Source of the DNA: Chitinophagales bacterium
GTDB lineage: Bacteria > Bacteroidota > Bacteroidia > Chitinophagales > Saprospiraceae
NCBI GenBank assembly: GCA_013299105.1
Contig: JAAFJY010000001.1
Location: 78,978 to 142,977 of the forward strand
Direction of reading: 5' to 3'
DNA: 64,000 nucleotides
This document shows, piece after piece, positions 9,590-40,899 of the stretch (positions are counted from its first letter, which is position 1; the number at the start of each line of letters is the position of its first letter). The notes under the pieces are model-generated. The model had not been told where the DNA came from and did no database searches. It saw nothing but the letters and a program-made list of their open reading frames with translations. The translations under genes were made by a program, and so were the position numbers.

Positions 9590-9886
9590 ATGAAAAGATC
9601 GTACATGGTGGAATTTGAGCTTCCGGAACAACTCACCGAAGATTTCCTGACGCTGATTCCCGAACAACGTTTGATGGTAGACAACCTGATGACCGAAGGC
9701 AAAGTACGCTCCTATTCGTTGGCCATGGATCGTTCTGTTTTATGGATGATTTTGGACGCCAATTCTGAGTTTGAGGCCATGGAAATCATTGCCCAACTCC
9801 CACTGAGCGACTACATGCAGCCTTTCATTTCGGAACTGATGTTCCACACCACTTCCGAAGCTACGCTTCACTTCTCATTGAACTAG
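9590..9886 (+). CDS. Muconolactone delta-isomerase-like small protein
   Basis: 98 aa ferredoxin-like pattern (LIPEQR..V..LM.EG..SY.L..DRS.LW....LPL..YM) that I recognise from Bacteroidota MIase-like proteins. Confidence 0.6.
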   Translation: MKRSYMVEFELPEQLTEDFLTLIPEQRLMVDNLMTEGKVRSYSLAMDRSVLWMILDANSEFEAMEIIAQLPLSDYMQPFISELMFHTTSEATLHFSLN

Positions 9887-10023
9887 GAGAGCGTAAAAAA
9901 AGAAGGTGGACAGATTTGGGTTTAGTGAAAAAAGAAAAGCAACTGGATGAAAGGAAGTTGTGTTCTTTTTTTACTAAACCTTAAAAGCAAATATGGCCAC
10001 ATTATTTTAGCTCAAATACTAAG
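9883..10023 (+). mobile_element. MITE family 2, copy 1 (short subtype)
   Basis: gagcgtaaaaaa...tttgggtttagtgaaaaaa...aactgga...ttattttagctcaaatac; similar to 12101, 34309 and 40750. Starts at the TAG stop of the upstream gene. Confidence 0.8.
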
Positions 10024-10079: not shown

Positions 10080-10625
10080 ATGCTGCGAATTGCGCTGGAC
10101 ATGGACGAGGTCGTCGCCGATGTTCTACCCAAGTTTTTAGACCTCTTTGAACAGTACAATGGCAAAAGACCCAGCCCAGAAGAACTGGCTGGTCGAAAAA
10201 TTTACGACCTCCCAGGAGGCAAACAAGTACGACAGCATATTTACGACAAAGGTTTTTTCCTCGATCTACCATTGATTCCGGGGGCCAAAGAAGGCGTTTT
10301 GGAGCTGTCCAAGCATTATGAAATTTTCTTTGTGACCGCAGCACAAGAGTTTCGCAATAGTTTTGAGGACAAATACGATTGGTTGATCCAGCATTTTCCT
10401 TTCATCGACTGGCGTCATTTTGTGTTTTGTGGCGATAAAAGTGTCATTCAAACCGATTACCTCCTGGATGACCACGCCTTCAACCTGCGCACCTTCAGCG
10501 GGAAAGGACTATTGTTTACAGCCTACCACAACCTCAACGAAACTGAATTTACCCGCCTTGACGATTGGAGCGAAGTGTTGGCTTTTTTTGAAAATGAACG
10601 CACTACGAAATCCACTGCCCCTTGA
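10080..10625 (+). CDS. 5'(3')-deoxyribonucleotidase (NT5C, HAD family)
   Basis: IALDMDEVVAD HAD motif I, FFVTAA, K..WL..HFPF, DYLLDD. Confidence 0.9.
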   Translation: MLRIALDMDEVVADVLPKFLDLFEQYNGKRPSPEELAGRKIYDLPGGKQVRQHIYDKGFFLDLPLIPGAKEGVLELSKHYEIFFVTAAQEFRNSFEDKYDWLIQHFPFIDWRHFVFCGDKSVIQTDYLLDDHAFNLRTFSGKGLLFTAYHNLNETEFTRLDDWSEVLAFFENERTTKSTAP

Positions 10626-11035
10626 GTTGGAAGAATAAAATCCAAGCGCTGCTGCGCTTGAAGATCAAATACGCAGCGTCGGCAGTTGTAGCTACTACAG
10701 TCGATTATGGCGTGTTTTTTTACCTTAGCGAGACCCTGAATTTTTCAGTGGCCAAAGCCCAAAGCATCGCCTATCCAGTGGGGGTGTTGGTAAACTTTCT
10801 GCTGCAACGGCGTTTTGTTTTTACCCAAACCCGCTCACTCTGGATGACCTTTGGCTTGGTCGTATTGGTATCTACTGGTGGCTTGCTGCTCAGTCGTTTT
10901 TTGATGAAAGGTTTTACCGATCACATTTCTTTTTTGAATGAATACAGAATTGTTGCTAAAGTGATGACTTCAGGTATCGTATTTTTTTACAATTTCTACT
11001 TAAAACGCTACGTCTTTGAAGGGAAATTACTGTAA
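10622..11035 (+). CDS. GtrA family membrane protein
   Basis: Four hydrophobic helices, ATTVDYG, NFLLQRRFVF, AK..TSGIVFFYNF..KRYVF; overlaps upstream stop. Confidence 0.85.
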   Translation: MSWKNKIQALLRLKIKYAASAVVATTVDYGVFFYLSETLNFSVAKAQSIAYPVGVLVNFLLQRRFVFTQTRSLWMTFGLVVLVSTGGLLLSRFLMKGFTDHISFLNEYRIVAKVMTSGIVFFYNFYLKRYVFEGKLL

Positions 11036-11315
11036 AGCAGCAGGAATTTCTGTAATGAGCATCGCCTACAAATAGCCGGCACAACCGACGAAAATTGTCA
11101 TCTTTTCTGACTAAAACCTACTGATTTATATTTTTTTATGTAAAAATAATTTTATATTTATCAGCCCATAGGACTGCTGTTCAATTATTTAGCCCGTACT
11201 ATTCTGCCCAAGTGTCATATTTTTTTTGACATTCACAAGTAGATATTGTTCTGAAAACTTCGGAGAAGTTTCCGTAGCTGAGAATTTTGTGATTTTCATG
11301 TTGAAAAGGAGGCGT

Positions 11316-11437
11316 TTATGACCGCGAAGCGGGCCAATTCTGCAAACTCTTTCAAATTCTAGTTAGGTCAACGTCATACAAGTAATTTTGTAATTCTTTA
11401 ATTCTGCCATTCTGAGAATTCTGGTTTAGACAAAAAA
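11316..11437 (+). repeat. REP-like element related to the 2240-2578 repeats
   Basis: gcgaagcgggccaattctg..ggtcaacgtcata and aattctggtttagacaaa shared with the 2.2-2.6 kb locus. Confidence 0.7.
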
Positions 11438-11440
11438 TAC

Positions 11441-11605
11441 CTAGTGGTACGAATTACAAATACCCCCTAGGTTGCGGGCAGGCTATTTGGCTTTGTAGCA
11501 AGGCGAGAGGAGGGAAAATAGTGGACTATTTGACCGACGAACAACGCAGCTACGGGGACAAAGAGCCCCTGGAACTTGGGGCAGATTTACAATTTGGACC
11601 ACTAG
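11441..11605 (+). mobile_element. MITE family 1, copy 1 (165 bp, CTAG at both ends)
   Basis: Imperfect 21 bp terminal inverted repeats ctagtggtacgaattacaaat / atttacaatttggaccactag; 5 differences from the copy at 19901. Confidence 0.88.
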
Positions 11606-11801
11606 CTTGACTATTGTGATCGCCGTTCTCCGAATTTTTCAATATTGTTACAAAATAGAAATAAATCACAAACATTTGATATTCAGATAGATAAATCATT
11701 CTACATCTTGTTCGTCTTTGCTTATTTTCCTTTGTAATTTACACAACAACTTGGATGTTCACATAACAACAAGGTAATCTGATGCTGGTTATCAGCAACT
11801 T

Positions 11802-11846
11802 TAGGGTTTACCCTATTTTACTACCTGTCAATATCTTCTAATTTTG
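11802..11846 (+). promoter_or_regulatory. TAGGG-N4-CCCTA box plus Bacteroidota -7 promoter element (unit A)
   Basis: tagggtttacccta 11802-11815, 23 nt spacer, taattttg 11839-11846. Confidence 0.7.
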
Positions 11847-11850
11847 CGAC

Positions 11851-12065
11851 AGTGAAAAAGGGAGGATTTTTCCTCAAGCCAACAGTGAACTGTTTACTTG
11901 ATTTTTCACACCTAAAGCTTCGCCTACTACCCATATCTATGCGAAGCAGCCGTTTCCCGGCTTATTTACAGAACCTGTGCATTTTAGTAAACATACCGTT
12001 TATTTTATATCCGAGAACCATCTGTCAATGGAATGAGAGGCCGCCTAGGGGGCCTTTCTTTTTTT
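11851..12065 (+). ncRNA. Candidate structured small RNA A
   Basis: Between the promoter and the terminator aggcc-gcctaggg-ggcct-ttcttttttt. Hairpins gtgaaaaa/tttttcac, gagga/tcctc, aacag/ctgtt, gcttcgc/gcgaagc, agccg/cggct. No credible ORF contained within it. Confidence 0.6.
12038..12065 (+). terminator. Rho-independent terminator of unit A
   Basis: aggcc/ggcct stem followed by a U tract. Confidence 0.7.
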
Positions 12066-12100
12066 ATGGGATTTTTGCCGAAATGCGAGCCAGGTGATCT

Positions 12101-12238
12101 CTTAGGGAGCGTAAAAAAAAAGGTGGTCAGGTTTGGGTTTAGTGAAAAAAGAAAAGCAACTGGATGAAAGGATTTGTGTTCTTTTTTTGCTAAACCTCAA
12201 AGACAAAGATGTCCATCTTATTTTAGCTCAAATACTTA
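12101..12238 (+). mobile_element. MITE family 2, copy 2 (short subtype, TTA...TTA flanks)
   Basis: Close match to 9883-10023; TTA at both ends. Confidence 0.82.
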
Positions 12239-12458
12239 TATCATTTGTAACGCTCCAACCTTCTTTCGCATCTTTTGCGCTTCAAAAAATTCCTTTTTGC
12301 TTTTTGCACCAACTCTTTTGCAGTTTATTTTTAAAAAAATCATTTAGGGAGCTCACTAGTTATTTTTTAAGAAATTGATTATCAATTATTTATATCAAAA
12401 ATACACCCATCTCTACTCCACCTTTCAGCGCCCGGAAAAACCCAAAACTTTTTTCATT

Positions 12459-12503
12459 TCGGGTTTCCCCTAGGGTTTGCTCTTGTGCATGGGCCTACCT
12501 TTG
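12459..12503 (+). promoter_or_regulatory. TAGGG-N4-CCCTA-like box plus -7 element (unit B)
   Basis: tcgggtttccccta 12459-12472, 23 nt spacer, tacctttg 12496-12503. Confidence 0.68.
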
Positions 12504-12507
12504 TACC

Positions 12508-12748
12508 AGATCAAACGAGATCAGTTGGAGGTTTTTAGGTCGAAATCAGTGTAGTAACAGTTTCTATCGAAGTACTTCCAGCCATCCTCAAGCCTATTTC
12601 CAAAAAACCAAAAATATGCTTCAAGCAGGTTTATCCGCACTTTTATGAGGTCCTGCTGAAGCGCTTTTTTTGAGCAGGTTGATACCAAAAACTATTTTAT
12701 TGGAATGGGGGTCGCTAAGGGCAAGGGCGGCCCCCAGTTTTTTCAAAA
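12508..12748 (+). ncRNA. Candidate structured small RNA B
   Basis: Promoter to terminator tgggggtcgc/gcggccccca-gtttttt; internal hairpin gcttcaagcagg/cctgctgaagc; 3' motif shared with A and C. Confidence 0.6.
12708..12748 (+). terminator. Rho-independent terminator of unit B
   Basis: 10 bp GC-rich stem with one G-U pair, followed by gttttttc. Confidence 0.75.
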
Positions 12749-12790
12749 CATAGGCTTTGTGTACATGATGAGTATCTGAGCGAAAAATAC

Positions 12791-12863
12791 TAGGGAAAAC
12801 CCTAAGTTTTTTTGACACTAGTGAAACCCCTAAGCTGGTAGCTAAATTACAAAGCTACCTTTG
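12791..12863 (+). promoter_or_regulatory. Two TAGGG-N4-CCCTA boxes plus -7 element (unit C)
   Basis: tagggaaaacccta 12791-12804, tagtgaaaccccta 12819-12832, 23 nt spacer, tacctttg 12856-12863. Confidence 0.72.
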
Positions 12864-12867
12864 TTTT

Positions 12868-13080
12868 GTCCCGTAAAAAACTTTTAAATTTTCATCCCAA
12901 AACCCAATACGAGCGAGAGGCAATCTACATATCCCCCTCCCCCTAAAGATAAAAACAATCCGGGCAATGGGGTACTGCTTCCGGGACCTGACTTGAACGA
13001 AAGTCAACCCAGGAATGCTGATACCCAAGAACTATTTGATGGTCAGTAAGGCCGCTCCGAAAATGGGCGGCCTTTCTATT
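12868..13080 (+). ncRNA. Candidate structured small RNA C
   Basis: Promoter to terminator aggccgc(t)cc/gggcggcct-ttctatttt; long hairpin gggta..gcttcc.ggg..tgactt/aagtca..ccc.ggaatgc..taccc. Confidence 0.62.
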
Positions 13081-13083
13081 TTT
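13049..13083 (+). terminator. Rho-independent terminator of unit C
   Basis: aggccgctccgaaaatgggcggcct followed by a U-rich tail. Confidence 0.75.
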
Positions 13084-13130
13084 AGGGCTATTTCAAGCCT
13101 TATTTTTTACGCCCTCCACGACTTTCTTAA

Positions 13131-13138
13131 TACCTTTG
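13131..13138 (+). promoter_or_regulatory. -7 promoter element upstream of prs
   Basis: tacctttg matches TAnnTTTG; no TAGGG-N4-CCCTA box at the matching distance. Confidence 0.55.
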
Positions 13139-13239
13139 TGGTCGAAAAAGTGTTTTGATCAAAAATCGCTCAAAACAGACACGAAAGCAGCCTTGTGCTC
13201 CGTTTCGTAAAAACATTCGTCAAATTGTACACAGAACTC

Positions 13240-14172
13240 ATGGTTGAGGTAAAACTTTTTTCCTGTACGGAATCCCAATACCTGGCTGAAAAAATTGCTG
13301 ACTATTATGGCAGCCCGCTCGGAGAACGCCATATCCATCGCTTCAGCGACGGCGAAATGCAACCTGTAATCCAGGAATCGGTACGTGGAGCCTATGTGTT
13401 TTTTATCCAATCCACTTTTCCGCCTGCTGATAATCTACTGGAACTATTGCTGATGATTGATGCGGCCAAACGCGCTTCAGCAGGCTACATCACTGCGGTT
13501 ATTCCATATTTTGGCTACGCTCGCCAAGACCGCAAAGACCAACCTCGCGTTCCCATTTCGGCCAAACTGATCGCCAATCTCATTCAAGCAGCCGGGGTCA
13601 ATAGGATCATGACCATGGATTTACACGCTGATCAAATCCAGGGCTTCTTTGACATCCCGGTGGACCACCTCAAAAGTGAGGCCATTTATATCCCATACTT
13701 GCAAGAAACTGGCGTGGACAATGTCATTTTTGCCTCGCCCGACGTAGGTGGGGTGAAGCGTACCCGTGCTTATTCCAAGTACTTTTCTACCGACTTGGTG
13801 ATCTGTGACAAGTACCGCGAAAAAGCCAACGAAGTGGCCGGAATGACCGTCATCGGCAACGTAGAAGGCCGCAATGTGATCTTGGTAGATGACATGGTCG
13901 ACACCGCCGGAACCCTGTGTCGAGCCGCAGATATTATCATGAAAAAAGGTGCCAAAAGTGTAAAAGCCCTGTGTACACACCCCATTTTGAGTGGCAATGC
14001 CTACGAGAATATCGAAAATTCGGCGCTTGATGAAATGATCGTTTGTGATACCATTCCACTCAAACAAGAATCGAAAAAAATCAAGGTTTTGTCCACTGCT
14101 AAACTCTTTGCCCGCGCCATCCGCAATACGCACGAGCACCGCTCGATCTCGGCATTGTTTGTGGAGGGATAA
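13240..14172 (+). CDS. prs: Ribose-phosphate pyrophosphokinase
   Basis: RFSDGE, YFGYARQDRK, MDLHADQIQGFFDIPVD, SPDVGG, LVDDMVDTAGT. Confidence 0.97.
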   Translation: MVEVKLFSCTESQYLAEKIADYYGSPLGERHIHRFSDGEMQPVIQESVRGAYVFFIQSTFPPADNLLELLLMIDAAKRASAGYITAVIPYFGYARQDRKDQPRVPISAKLIANLIQAAGVNRIMTMDLHADQIQGFFDIPVDHLKSEAIYIPYLQETGVDNVIFASPDVGGVKRTRAYSKYFSTDLVICDKYREKANEVAGMTVIGNVEGRNVILVDDMVDTAGTLCRAADIIMKKGAKSVKALCTHPILSGNAYENIENSALDEMIVCDTIPLKQESKKIKVLSTAKLFARAIRNTHEHRSISALFVEG

Positions 14173-19900: not shown

Positions 19901-20065
19901 CTAGTGGTACGAATTACAAATACCCCCTAGGTTCCAGGCAGGCTATTTGGCTTTGTAGCAAGGCGAGAGGAGGGAAAATAGTGGACTATTTGACCGACGA
20001 ACAACGAAGCTACGGAGACAAAGAGCCCGTGGAACTTGGGGCAGATTTACAATTTGGACCACTAG
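19901..20065 (+). mobile_element. MITE family 1, copy 2
   Basis: 165 bp, CTAG ends, 5 differences from 11441-11605. Confidence 0.88.
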
Positions 20066-34308: not shown

Positions 34309-34461
34309 CTTAAGTATTTGAGCTAAAATAAGGAGGATATCTTTGCTTTTGAGGTTTAGCAAAAAAAGAACACAAATCCTTTCATCCAGTTACTTAAACT
34401 AGTAGTGACCTTTTTTCACTAAACCCAAACCAGTCCACCTTATTTTTTTTATGCTCCCTAA
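34309..34461 (-). mobile_element. MITE family 2, copy 3 (long subtype, inverted)
   Basis: Reverse complement matches 12101 and 40750; TTA flanks; carries the extra ggtcactantagtttaag segment. Confidence 0.8.
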
Positions 34462-40749: not shown

Positions 40750-40899
40750 TTAGAGCGCGTAAAAAATAAGGTAAACGAGTTGGATTTAGTGAAAAAAGGT
40801 CACTATTAGTTTAAGCAACTGGATTCAAGGAAGTGGTGTTCTTTTTTTGCTACACCTCAAAAGCAAAGTAATTTACCTTATTTTAGCTCGAATACTAAG
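40750..40899 (+). mobile_element. MITE family 2, copy 4 (long subtype, more diverged)
   Basis: cgtaaaaaataaggt..tttagtgaaaaaaggtcactattagtttaagcaactgga..ttattttagctcgaatac. Confidence 0.75.

Follow-up and report, generated by a model that had tools for sequence, protein, structure and literature searches.

Here we describe three tandem non-coding units (A, B and C) on the + strand of a Haliscomenobacter genome, located just upstream of the ribose-phosphate pyrophosphokinase gene (prs), and conclude from comparison of their sequences across related lineages that these are, very probably, genuine genes for regulatory RNAs, from a family that is undescribed and narrowly distributed. The trio is a well-supported new and lineage-restricted family of small RNAs (sRNAs) of a kind that is already known: co-regulated sRNAs that occur in tandem or in several copies are familiar, and the trio overturns no principle. 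RNA regulation in Bacteroidota outside the gut Bacteroides is—to our knowledge—almost unexplored, and we found no sRNA work for Haliscomenobacter or its family in the literature. The trio offers a clean and strongly constrained case, with a common promoter box and 3′ module, in an organism in which neither Hfq nor CsrA was found, and it is a convenient entry point to the transcription factor and RNA-binding partner in this lineage. It also indicates that lineage-restricted sRNA genes can be verified without transcriptomes, by comparison with synonymous-site divergence in metagenome contigs from close relatives.

The window, the whole stretch of DNA that we analysed, is 64,000 nt in length. The trio occupies a gap between a GtrA-family gene and prs, and its units are built alike: a CCCTA box and, after exactly 23 nt, TAnnTTTG, then around 215–235 nt, a shared 13-nt motif and an intrinsic terminator (Table 1). 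The original prediction, made from the letters of the window, held that the gap contains no credible protein gene and that two MITEs (Table 1) had inserted outside all three units, and both statements stand. Codon-usage log-odds in the gap are at background (0.3–0.8 in the flanking genes), a Pfam search of the ORFs in the gap gave zero matches and no small ORF common to A, B and C was found. In blastn searches against their own genome, each unit is single-copy, and the adjacent MITEs have 60–320 copies. We rejected the classification of the units as a MITE or repeat family, as they have no dispersed genomic copies in the same searches. In congeners, genes for HU and a VOC/glyoxalase protein precede prs, purN follows gtrA and the trio is missing from the orthologous positions; the gap is therefore a clade-specific junction. 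It is also a MITE-rich synteny breakpoint relative to other congeners.

Table 1 Features of the gap between gtrA and prs, in window coordinates.
Feature	Position	Strand	Description
MITE 1	~11250-11620	.	composite or nested repeat; 60-180 genomic copies, by segment; outside the units
Box A, TTAGGGTTTACCCTA	11801-11815	+	palindrome TAGGGTTTACCCTA at 11802-11815; perfect TAGGG-N4-CCCTA; 23 nt between its end and the -7 element of A
Unit A -7 element, TAATTTTG	11839-11846	+	TAnnTTTG; TAGTTTTG or TATTTTTG in other lineages, spacing unchanged
Unit A, predicted RNA of ~215 nt	11851-12066	+	5′ hairpin cluster, single strand, two hairpins, 3′ motif, terminator
Unit A 3′ motif, CCGAGAACCAUCU	12011-12023	+	
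Unit A terminator	stem 12035-12058, U-tail to 12065	+	from terminator scan
MITE 2	~12100-12256	.	~320 genomic copies; terminal inverted repeat GGAGCGT; between A and B
Unit B upstream regulatory block	12424-12495	+	distal box, T-run, proximal box, -33-like TTTG
Unit B distal box, GGAAAAACCCAAAAC	12434-12448	+	
Unit B proximal box, CGGGTTTCCCCTAG	12460-12473	+	
Unit B -33-like TTTG	12476-12479	+	
Unit B -7 element, TACCTTTG	12496-12503	+	TAnnTTTG; invariant in five lineages
Unit B, predicted RNA of ~236 nt	12508-12743	+	5′ hairpin, single strand, internal hairpin, 3′ motif, terminator
Unit B single-stranded stretch, AGCCUAUUUCCAAAAAACCAAAAAUAUGC	12591-12619	+	invariant
Unit B internal hairpin	~12617-12671	+	with U-run
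Unit B 3′ motif, CCAAAAACUAUUU	12685-12697	+	
Unit B terminator	stem 12706-12736, U-tail to 12743	+	
Unit C upstream regulatory block	12790-12855	+	distal palindrome, T-run, proximal box
Unit C distal palindrome, CTAGGGAAAACCCTAAG	12790-12806	+	perfect palindrome TAGGGAAAACCCTA at 12791-12804
Unit C proximal box, GTGAAACCCCTAAG	12821-12834	+	
Unit C -7 element, TACCTTTG	12856-12863	+	TAnnTTTG; invariant in five lineages
Unit C, predicted RNA of ~216 nt	12868-13083	+	A/C-rich 5′ half, hairpin, 3′ motif, terminator
Unit C hairpin	~12977-13018	+	conserved
Unit C 3′ motif, CCAAGAACUAUUU	13025-13037	+	
Unit C terminator	stem 13048-13074, U-tail to 13083	+	from terminator scan
prs promoter TACCTTTG (13131-13138) and ~100-nt leader	13131-13239	+	context, outside the trio

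There is strong evidence, at the level of sequence, that the whole units and their upstream boxes are under purifying selection across five lineages. We compared the window genome (W), as the reference, with lineages represented by metagenome contigs (L055, L056, L059-62 and L063). A covariance model of the 3′ module (R1) located A, B and C, in the order of W and upstream of prs, in L056, L059-62 and L063; L055 has B and C only, and its contig ends inside the locus. The prs protein is 98–100% identical across the four related lineages, and fourfold-degenerate sites of prs, our neutral yardstick, differ from W by 16.4, 28.4, 44.3 and 51.9%. Substitutions in the units amount to 2–25% versus 16–52% at fourfold sites (binomial P of 1e-10 to 1e-45), and the units evolve 2–7 times slower than these sites. 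Orthologues of unit A in three lineages show 4.2, 8.9 and 19.5% differences (28, 44 and 52% at fourfold sites), those of unit B 2.1–24.8% substitutions (16–52%) and those of unit C 2.8, 3.7, 10.2 and 7.4% (16, 28, 44 and 52%); the 3′ 160 nt of unit C are identical in L055. Between W and L056, nucleotide identity is around 96% in the units, 84.8% in the gtrA coding sequence and 91.5% in the prs coding sequence. The inter-unit spacers are scrambled and have different MITE insertions in each lineage, and even in the nearest lineage only 17 of the 46 positions of the B–C spacer (12744–12789) are identical. On the far side from prs, the neighbouring gene varies: W and L056 have gtrA, L059 has a gene for an FAD oxidoreductase and L063 one for a T9SS-tail protein.

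The constraint extends to the architecture and, in unit B, to the secondary structure. In W, TAnnTTTG lies 227–249 nt upstream of each terminator end, and the distances in the orthologues match those in W, except for a MITE-bearing copy of B in L059. Orthologues of every unit differ by indels of 1–2 nt, which would break a reading frame, so that no ORF is conserved in the units; together with coding potential at background and the lack of a common ORF, this agrees with the non-coding nature that was originally proposed. Four pairs of the internal hairpin of unit B have changed on both sides with pairing retained; the covariation score of this hairpin is 0.161, compared with 0.089 for shuffled sequences (0.161 is reached in 4 of 500), and slid controls give at most one compensatory pair. 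The sequence of the long 5′ hairpin of unit B turns over with retention of the fold: this hairpin folds in every lineage (z of −2.3 to −4.7) from different sequences and, in L059 and L063, position and fold are the same although the sequence is unrelated. Conservation of units A and C is too high for covariation to show, so, formally, the constraint on these two may lie in the DNA. Because purifying selection and structural covariation are found together in the comparison with four related lineages, functional RNA genes are far more likely than could be judged from the letters of the window.

It is highly improbable, and strongly disfavoured by these comparative data, that the units have no function, as decayed duplicates, debris of MITEs or remnants of a rearrangement junction, or that they encode small proteins or type I toxins: a MITE-rich breakpoint and a family absent outside a narrow clade would suit such an origin, but the units are single-copy, evolve slowly between scrambled spacers and carry compensatory changes, and the absence of a common ORF, the frame-breaking indels and the background coding potential argue against a protein product. 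On the same three grounds we rejected a small ORF, a type I toxin and a RiPP precursor as identities for the units.

The upstream regions of the units are conserved as distinct blocks. In each unit, exactly 23 nt separate the end of CCCTA from TAnnTTTG, the −7 element of Bacteroidota, as had been noted originally. The combination CCCTA-N23-TAnnTTTG occurs seven times in the genome of 7.67 Mb, with three of the seven occurrences in these units, and a genome-wide regulon search with this pattern and with TAGGG-N4-CCCTA found no enrichment besides the trio. Because the combination is invariant, with exact spacing, in all 14 unit copies across the lineages, the co-regulation claimed at the outset is reasonable, and the trio is probably co-regulated. 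The claim of a palindromic box in each unit holds fully for A, which has a perfect palindrome, and in part for B and C, the proximal boxes of which are only half-palindromic (CGGGTTTCCCCTA and GTGAAACCCCTA). Box A is invariant in W, L056, L059 and L063, and sequence conservation starts at this box. The upstream block of B, including the −7 element (12418–12503), is identical to W at 71–84 of 86 positions in all four other lineages, and the sequence immediately upstream of the regulatory block is scrambled between lineages; for C (12790–12863), 63–70 of 74 positions are identical. In other lineages, the distal palindrome of C reads TAGGGTAAACCCTA, the reverse complement of box A. A second possibility is that the box, with a T-run, acts as an insulator in the form of a small hairpin and does not bind a protein.

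Downstream of the promoters, the three bodies differ. Apart from the box, promoter and 3′ module, local alignment of A, B and C found nothing significant; the units are paralogous in modules, and their 5′ halves are as divergent as predicted. The minimum-free-energy folds of units A and B each have a z of −2.9. In unit A, an invariant single-stranded stretch (UUCACACCUAAAGCUUCG) follows the 5′ hairpin cluster; in unit B, the 5′ end (AGAUCAAACGAGAUCAG) is invariant; and the 5′ half of unit C is A/C-rich and mostly unstructured, and contains CCCCCUCCCCCU. Each body is conserved in its own right across the lineages but cannot be aligned with those of its paralogues, which argues for distinct roles plus a shared 3′ module and against simple redundancy; the original prediction had proposed redundant RNAs.

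The shared 3′ motif (CCRARAACYATYT) precedes the terminator in all three units, as predicted. It has 13 matches in the genome versus around 7 expected, and only the three local matches are followed by a strong terminator; as these three lie on one strand within about 1 kb, their clustering is far beyond chance. The motifs of B and C are offset by a 1-nt indel. All five positions that vary between paralogues are transitions, compared with a transition:transversion ratio of about 1:1 (94:101) at fourfold sites (P of around 0.03, by hand arithmetic). This pattern fits recognition that allows purine–purine and pyrimidine–pyrimidine swaps, such as wobble pairing. Like the other predicted elements, the terminators, each with a GC-rich stem of 10–11 bp and a U-tail, were located at or near their predicted positions; the end of unit B is nearer to 12743 than to the 12748 given previously, because the U-tail reaches 12743.

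Searches for relatives of the trio delimit a narrow distribution. Rfam 15, with its models for tmRNA, RNase P, SRP, 6S, FopS/GibS, Qrr, CsrB/Rsm, OmrA-B, riboswitches and leaders, gave no match at gathering thresholds across the whole window, and a permissive scan of 11000–13300 gave only matches of at most 21 bits (E of 0.6–8), far under the gathering scores; the original prediction had likewise recognized no familiar RNA family in the units. Queried by blastn, 11 congeners (units A, B and C) and 60 relatives (unit C) returned only short chance matches. Model R1 detected only bare terminators or signal-peptide coding sequence in the genus and in 250 genomes of the family, and the best match to a covariance model of whole unit C (R2) in the genus was not credible (24.5 bits). 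An exact-pattern scan of metagenome contigs returned 18 loci, which we regard as chance matches because none of the 18 has a terminator, and the trio was not matched in the phage and plasmid collections searched. Whether homologous loci keep the 3′ motif had been set in advance as a test of the prediction, and the outcome is split: the motif is kept in the close clade, but is missing from all other representatives of the genus (11 species) and from the 250 family genomes. The absence of the family from these genomes and from the metagenome pattern scan implies that its function is dispensable outside the narrow clade.

Each unit has the features that generally mark an sRNA gene: its own promoter and its own intrinsic terminator around a short unit without an ORF, and constraint on sequence or structure beyond the neutral rate. 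We consider it likely that the units are independently transcribed, structured non-coding sRNA genes of around 215–236 nt, with expression and a function in trans as proposed below. Transcription of each unit would start at a promoter of the Bacteroidota housekeeping type (TAnnTTTG), with one common DNA-binding regulator probably making up for a −33 element that is weak or absent. This regulator would recognize the TAGGG/CCCTA box at its fixed distance of 23 nt upstream from the −7 element, B and C having additional distal boxes, and transcription of each unit would stop at the strong intrinsic terminator. The RNAs would most likely be trans-acting and work through their invariant single-stranded segments, one of which is specific to each body, and the differing bodies would give each RNA its specificity. 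The 13-nt segment common to all three (CCRARRCYAUYU-type) is predicted to be single-stranded, with the last hairpin of the body on one side and the terminator on the other, and may be a seed through which all three RNAs pair or a site at which an RNA-binding protein docks.

Searches for targets of base pairing were negative. Comparison of the shared motif with around 7,800 translation-start regions using RNAduplex showed no enrichment over internal controls and no stand-out target, prs included, and a search for a common wobble-compatible target (AGAUGGUUUUUGG) likewise found neither enrichment nor a stand-out target. The lack of a convincing mRNA target would suit RNAs that titrate a protein in the manner of CsrB/RsmZ or 6S, with the 3′ module as the protein site and no base pairing with mRNAs, an alternative that we regard as unlikely. 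None of A, B and C has a 6S-like closed rod fold, the Rfam models of 6S and Csr/Rsm do not match and no multiply repeated motif was noticed within a unit (judged by eye). The candidate partners in the genome point both ways: there is no Hfq above the Pfam cut-off and no CsrA/RsmA (no match to PF02599, nothing by tblastn), but there is one RRM_1 protein, encoded at 457665–457874 of genome contig C1, and RRM proteins bind multicopy sRNAs in Bacteroides (PMC11697453). The shared module itself, which is AU-rich, unpaired and adjoins the terminator, is in the usual position of a chaperone-binding module.

The location of the trio, directly upstream of prs and in unchanged orientation in five lineages with a varying gene on the other side, raises the improbable alternative that the units are a stack of cis-acting promoters and terminators (attenuators), through which read-through sets prs transcription, and not trans-acting RNAs. 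The conserved internal hairpin of unit B, with its U-run before the final terminator, would fit such a stack. However, prs has its own promoter and leader (Table 1); this promoter is conserved in all lineages and in the congener G002, which lacks the trio and has an equal promoter-and-leader layout at prs. Between the C terminator and the prs promoter, the sequence is unconserved in L059 (23 of 40 positions identical) and L063 (22 of 47), each unit is closed by a GC-rich terminator stem and U-tail, Rfam has no matching riboswitch or leader model and the whole units have no unusual complementarity to the prs leader. The units do not qualify as a cis-leader or riboswitch of prs, as the prs promoter at 13131 is downstream of them.

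Trans-acting sRNAs remain our preferred reading. A doubtful extension of it, which we offer as speculation, is that the trio would be a self-contained regulatory module tied to prs, in which a dedicated transcription factor that recognizes TAGGG-N4-CCCTA, three RNAs with different specificity domains and a common 3′ module on which a putative RNA chaperone of Hfq-less Bacteroidota (for example, the single RRM protein of this genome) docks would link nucleotide/PRPP metabolism or cell-surface functions of this filamentous sludge bacterium to a signal from the environment.

The original prediction compared the trio with the Qrr and Rsm sets. Qrr1–5 of Vibrio have sigma-54 promoters and use Hfq; RsmX, RsmY and RsmZ of Pseudomonas have many GGA motifs and titrate CsrA/RsmA. 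Like these sets, the trio consists of several paralogous sRNAs with a common (here putative) upstream activator site and a conserved segment; unlike them, its genes are contiguous and not dispersed, and the corresponding Rfam models do not match. We did not assign the units to the Qrr type, as they have TAnnTTTG instead of GG-N10-GC and the genome has no Hfq above the Pfam cut-off, or to the Csr/Rsm type, with no CsrA by PF02599 or tblastn and no Rfam model match.

OmrA and OmrB of enterobacteria are adjacent paralogous sRNAs of around 85 nt, both activated by OmpR, with both ends in common. This pair has been described previously (bioRxiv 10.64898/2026.06.26.734639). The trio and OmrA/OmrB are both made up of tandem same-strand paralogues in one intergenic region, each with its own promoter and intrinsic terminator; in both, conservation is concentrated in modules (the central part of OmrA/OmrB diverges) and a common upstream regulator site, putative here, implies co-regulation. 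The trio differs in having three genes instead of two, with lengths of around 220 nt each versus around 85 nt, and in that only the 3′ module and promoter box are common to its paralogues; there is no relationship by sequence or Rfam, and no Hfq above the Pfam cut-off in this genome.

The FopS/GibS family of Bacteroides thetaiotaomicron includes 14 dispersed copies of FopS, with a conserved 5′ seed, a single-strand-plus-terminator shape and a deposited Rfam model (PMC11697453). Like FopS/GibS, the trio is a paralogous Bacteroidota sRNA family with sigma-A-type TAnnTTTG promoters, a suspected extra regulator, a conserved single-stranded seed (a candidate here) and an intrinsic terminator, in a host in which no Hfq or CsrA was found and RRM-type RNA-binding protein(s) are present. 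Unlike FopS/GibS, it consists of three clustered, longer, multi-hairpin RNAs with a 3′-proximal common segment, has no Rfam match and is confined to a sub-clade of Haliscomenobacter.

The MITEs at the locus vary between lineages. A copy of the MITE 1 family is located between B and C in L056, and MITE 2 is missing from the equivalent site in L055, L056, L059 and L063. In L059, unit B itself is interrupted by a MITE, which separates the 5′ hairpin from the invariant single strand; this suggests that this part of B tolerates disruption or that B is being lost in that lineage.

The window corresponds to positions 78978–142977 of contig C1 in a 7.67-Mb genome (47% G+C), which is placed in the genus Haliscomenobacter on the basis of its prs protein and the database names of that protein. 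A 2.2-kb gap between a GtrA-family gene and prs holds three predicted small RNA (sRNA) genes, units A, B and C. At all three we found the layout described in the original prediction: a box (the TAGGG/CCCTA element), a –7 element (TAnnTTTG) exactly 23 nt from the end of CCCTA, and an intrinsic terminator preceded by a shared motif. Of the seven genomic occurrences of CCCTA-N23-TAnnTTTG, three are these units, and other spacings give 0–6 matches. The shared 3′ motif (CCRARAACYATYT) has 13 genomic matches, compared with around 7 expected (our own arithmetic), and only the three local copies precede a stable hairpin with a T-run. Two details required revision. Although a box is present at each unit, the proximal box is a perfect palindrome at unit A only (the sole other perfect palindrome is a second site upstream of C, at 12791–12804), and unit B does end in a terminator, but at ~12743 rather than 12748. 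The 5′ halves differ, as had been noted; A, B and C have no significant mutual similarity beyond the box, –7 element and 3′ module, and the motifs of B and C differ by a 1-nt indel.

Features of the gap and its borders (window coordinates)
Feature	Position	Strand	Basis
GtrA-family gene	10622–11035		
Repeat elements in gap	~11250–11620 and ~12100–12256		blastn against genome, 60–320 copies
TAnnTTTG, units A, B, C	11839, 12496, 12856	+	sequence scan
Strong intrinsic terminators, units A, B, C	~12065, ~12743, ~13083	+	terminator/fold prediction
TAnnTTTG of prs	13131	+	sequence scan
prs	13240–14172		

The gap was predicted to lack a credible protein gene, and its codon-usage log-odds are indeed at background (0.3–0.8 in the flanking genes), with no Pfam match among its ORFs and no small ORF common to A, B and C. 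Indels of 1–2 nt among the orthologues of all units exclude conserved reading frames.

Orthologous loci were sought with the exact prs protein and then with relatives that are 98–99% identical, leading to JGI metagenome contigs that represent four more lineages (L055, L056, L059 and L063; L057 and L058 represent the same lineage as L056, and L060–L062 the same as L059). The comparison comprises five lineages in total, all within one narrow clade. A covariance model of the 3′ module (R1) detected modules A, B and C in that order upstream of prs in L056, L059–L062 and L063, and B and C in L055, the contig of which ends there. On the far side of the trio, the window and L056 have the GtrA gene, L059 a gene for an FAD oxidoreductase and L063 one for a T9SS-tail protein. 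The units evolve 2–7 times more slowly than fourfold-degenerate prs sites (binomial P of 1e-10 to 1e-45), and between the window and L056 nucleotide identity is ~96% for the units, 91.5% for the prs coding sequence and 84.8% for that of gtrA. The 46-nt spacer from the B terminator to the C upstream block is identical at just 17 of 46 positions in the closest lineage, and the lineages cannot be aligned upstream of box A or of the B upstream block. The paralogue-specific form of the shared motif is kept in every lineage, which indicates that the triplication is older than the lineage split.

Divergence from the window sequence in four close lineages
Sites	L055	L056	L059	L063
Fourfold-degenerate prs sites	16.4%	28.4%	44.3%	51.9%
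Unit A	contig ends	4.2%	8.9%	19.5%
Unit B	2.1%	5.0%	21.9%	24.8%
Unit C	2.8%	3.7%	10.2%	7.4%

The persistent linkage of the trio to prs would fit a cis-regulatory role for that gene, which we consider of low probability given that prs has a conserved promoter and leader of its own and that the segment from C to the prs promoter is unconserved in the two most distant lineages. The leader (~100 nt, 13139–13239) contains a hairpin, ACGAAAGCAGCCTTGTGCTCCGTTTCGT, at ~13181–13208 and has no match to Rfam riboswitch or leader models. In G002, a congener without the trio, the equivalent leader (L003 4890–5000) contains a hairpin and then a T-run, and looks like an attenuator. Directly after the unit C terminator, at 13083–13108, is a second small hairpin and T-run (TAGGGCTATTTCAAGCCTTATTTTTT), conserved in L055 and L056 and not in L059 or L063.

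The original prediction did not recognise the units as a known RNA family, and Rfam 15 offers no counterpart: nothing in the whole window reached a gathering threshold, and permissive thresholds yielded only noise. Phage and plasmid collections contained nothing resembling the units. Blastn found no homologue of any unit in 11 further species representatives of Haliscomenobacter, or of unit C in 60 relatives. The 3′ motif, kept in the four close lineages, was not recovered more widely, with no real match for R1 in the genus and 250 family genomes, or for R2, the model of whole unit C, in the genus (E-values of these short-calibrated models are approximate). Exact-pattern matches in metagenome contigs were rejected as chance, since none has a terminator. 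In congeners, HU and VOC/glyoxalase genes precede prs and purN follows gtrA; these genes lie on other contigs in the genome of the window, so the gap is a clade-specific junction, and the differing synteny partly explains the negative results in congeners. With no homologue in congeners or the family, this first comparative round left junk as a serious alternative, against which the second round, in the four close lineages, was decisive. The trio is a genuine new family, and a well-supported one, of clustered paralogous predicted sRNA genes, restricted to a sub-clade of Haliscomenobacter.

Both repeat elements (MITEs) in the gap lie outside the units, as originally described, and a blastn search of the genome with the gap sequence shows each unit to be single-copy. 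MITE insertions differ in each lineage, even between close relatives, and are located in spacers; the sole exception, in L059, lies within unit B, in the linker that joins its 5′ hairpin to the invariant single strand, with the remainder of B conserved. One MITE family is inserted twice in L059 (3117–3285 and ~2300–2440): one copy is this insertion in B and the other is just upstream of unit A. The genome of the window is heavily colonised by the MITE2 family (~320 copies; also at 9884–10020, 34311–34461 and 40750–40896 in the window) and the MITE1 family (60–180 copies; also at 19901–20065 and 2238–2293).

Conservation of units A and C is too high to reveal covariation. In B, four pairs of the internal hairpin that precedes a U-run are changed on both sides with pairing kept (covariation score of 0.161 versus 0.089 in shuffles, reached by 4 of 500 shuffles; slid controls have at most one double-changed pair). 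The long 5′ hairpin of B is made of unrelated sequence in L059 and L063, yet its start position is constant and it folds well in every lineage (z of –2.3 to –4.7). All five positions that differ between the shared motifs of the paralogues are transitions, compared with 94 transitions to 101 transversions at fourfold sites (P ~0.03, our own arithmetic), a pattern compatible with wobble-tolerant pairing or recognition at the purine/pyrimidine level. An invariant A-rich stretch of B, CCAAAAAACCAAAAAU (12591–12619), is complementary to the internal U-run (12665–12671) and that of the 3′ tail (12738–12743); RNAalifold pairs it with both, which may be relevant to termination or stability.

The onset of conservation is sharp at the boxes, and TTAGGGTTTACCCTA at unit A is invariant. 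At B and C the conserved block extends ~65–70 nt upstream of the –7 element (~75–85 nt including it) and consists of a distal box, a T-run and a proximal box; the distal box of C is the reverse complement of box A in four of the five lineages. CCCTA-N23-TAnnTTTG is exact in all 14 unit copies. What the data show is three non-coding, structured units under constraint; they carry promoter-like and terminator elements, and their upstream boxes are private and conserved.

We propose that the predicted sRNAs are co-activated through the box and would act in trans, both through single-stranded stretches that are invariant, for example AGCCUAUUUCCAAAAAACCAAAAAUAUGC in B and the C-rich stretch in C, and through the shared 3′ segment. 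The expected redundancy of A, B and C is unlikely in its simple form, as each body is conserved separately. The trio is analogous to known tandem or multicopy sRNA sets and not a member of any. Target scans were uninformative. CsrA was not found in the genome, Hfq gave nothing above threshold and one RRM_1 protein is encoded, a combination like that of Bacteroides, in which RRM proteins bind multicopy sRNAs (PMC11697453).

Outside the window, an intergenic palindrome at C8:74432–74445, TAGGGAAAACCCTA, is identical to the unit C distal box and is followed, as at unit C, by AGTGAAAC; it adjoins a gene that resembles glycerate kinase by eye and has no –7 element at 23-nt spacing. It could be a further site of the putative box regulator, or chance. 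Genome-wide, only the sRNA gap is denser in TAGGG/CCCTA than C27:47700–48400, downstream of a large gene, where a G/T-rich tandem array (~290-bp period) carries many TAGGG and GGTTTAG motifs.
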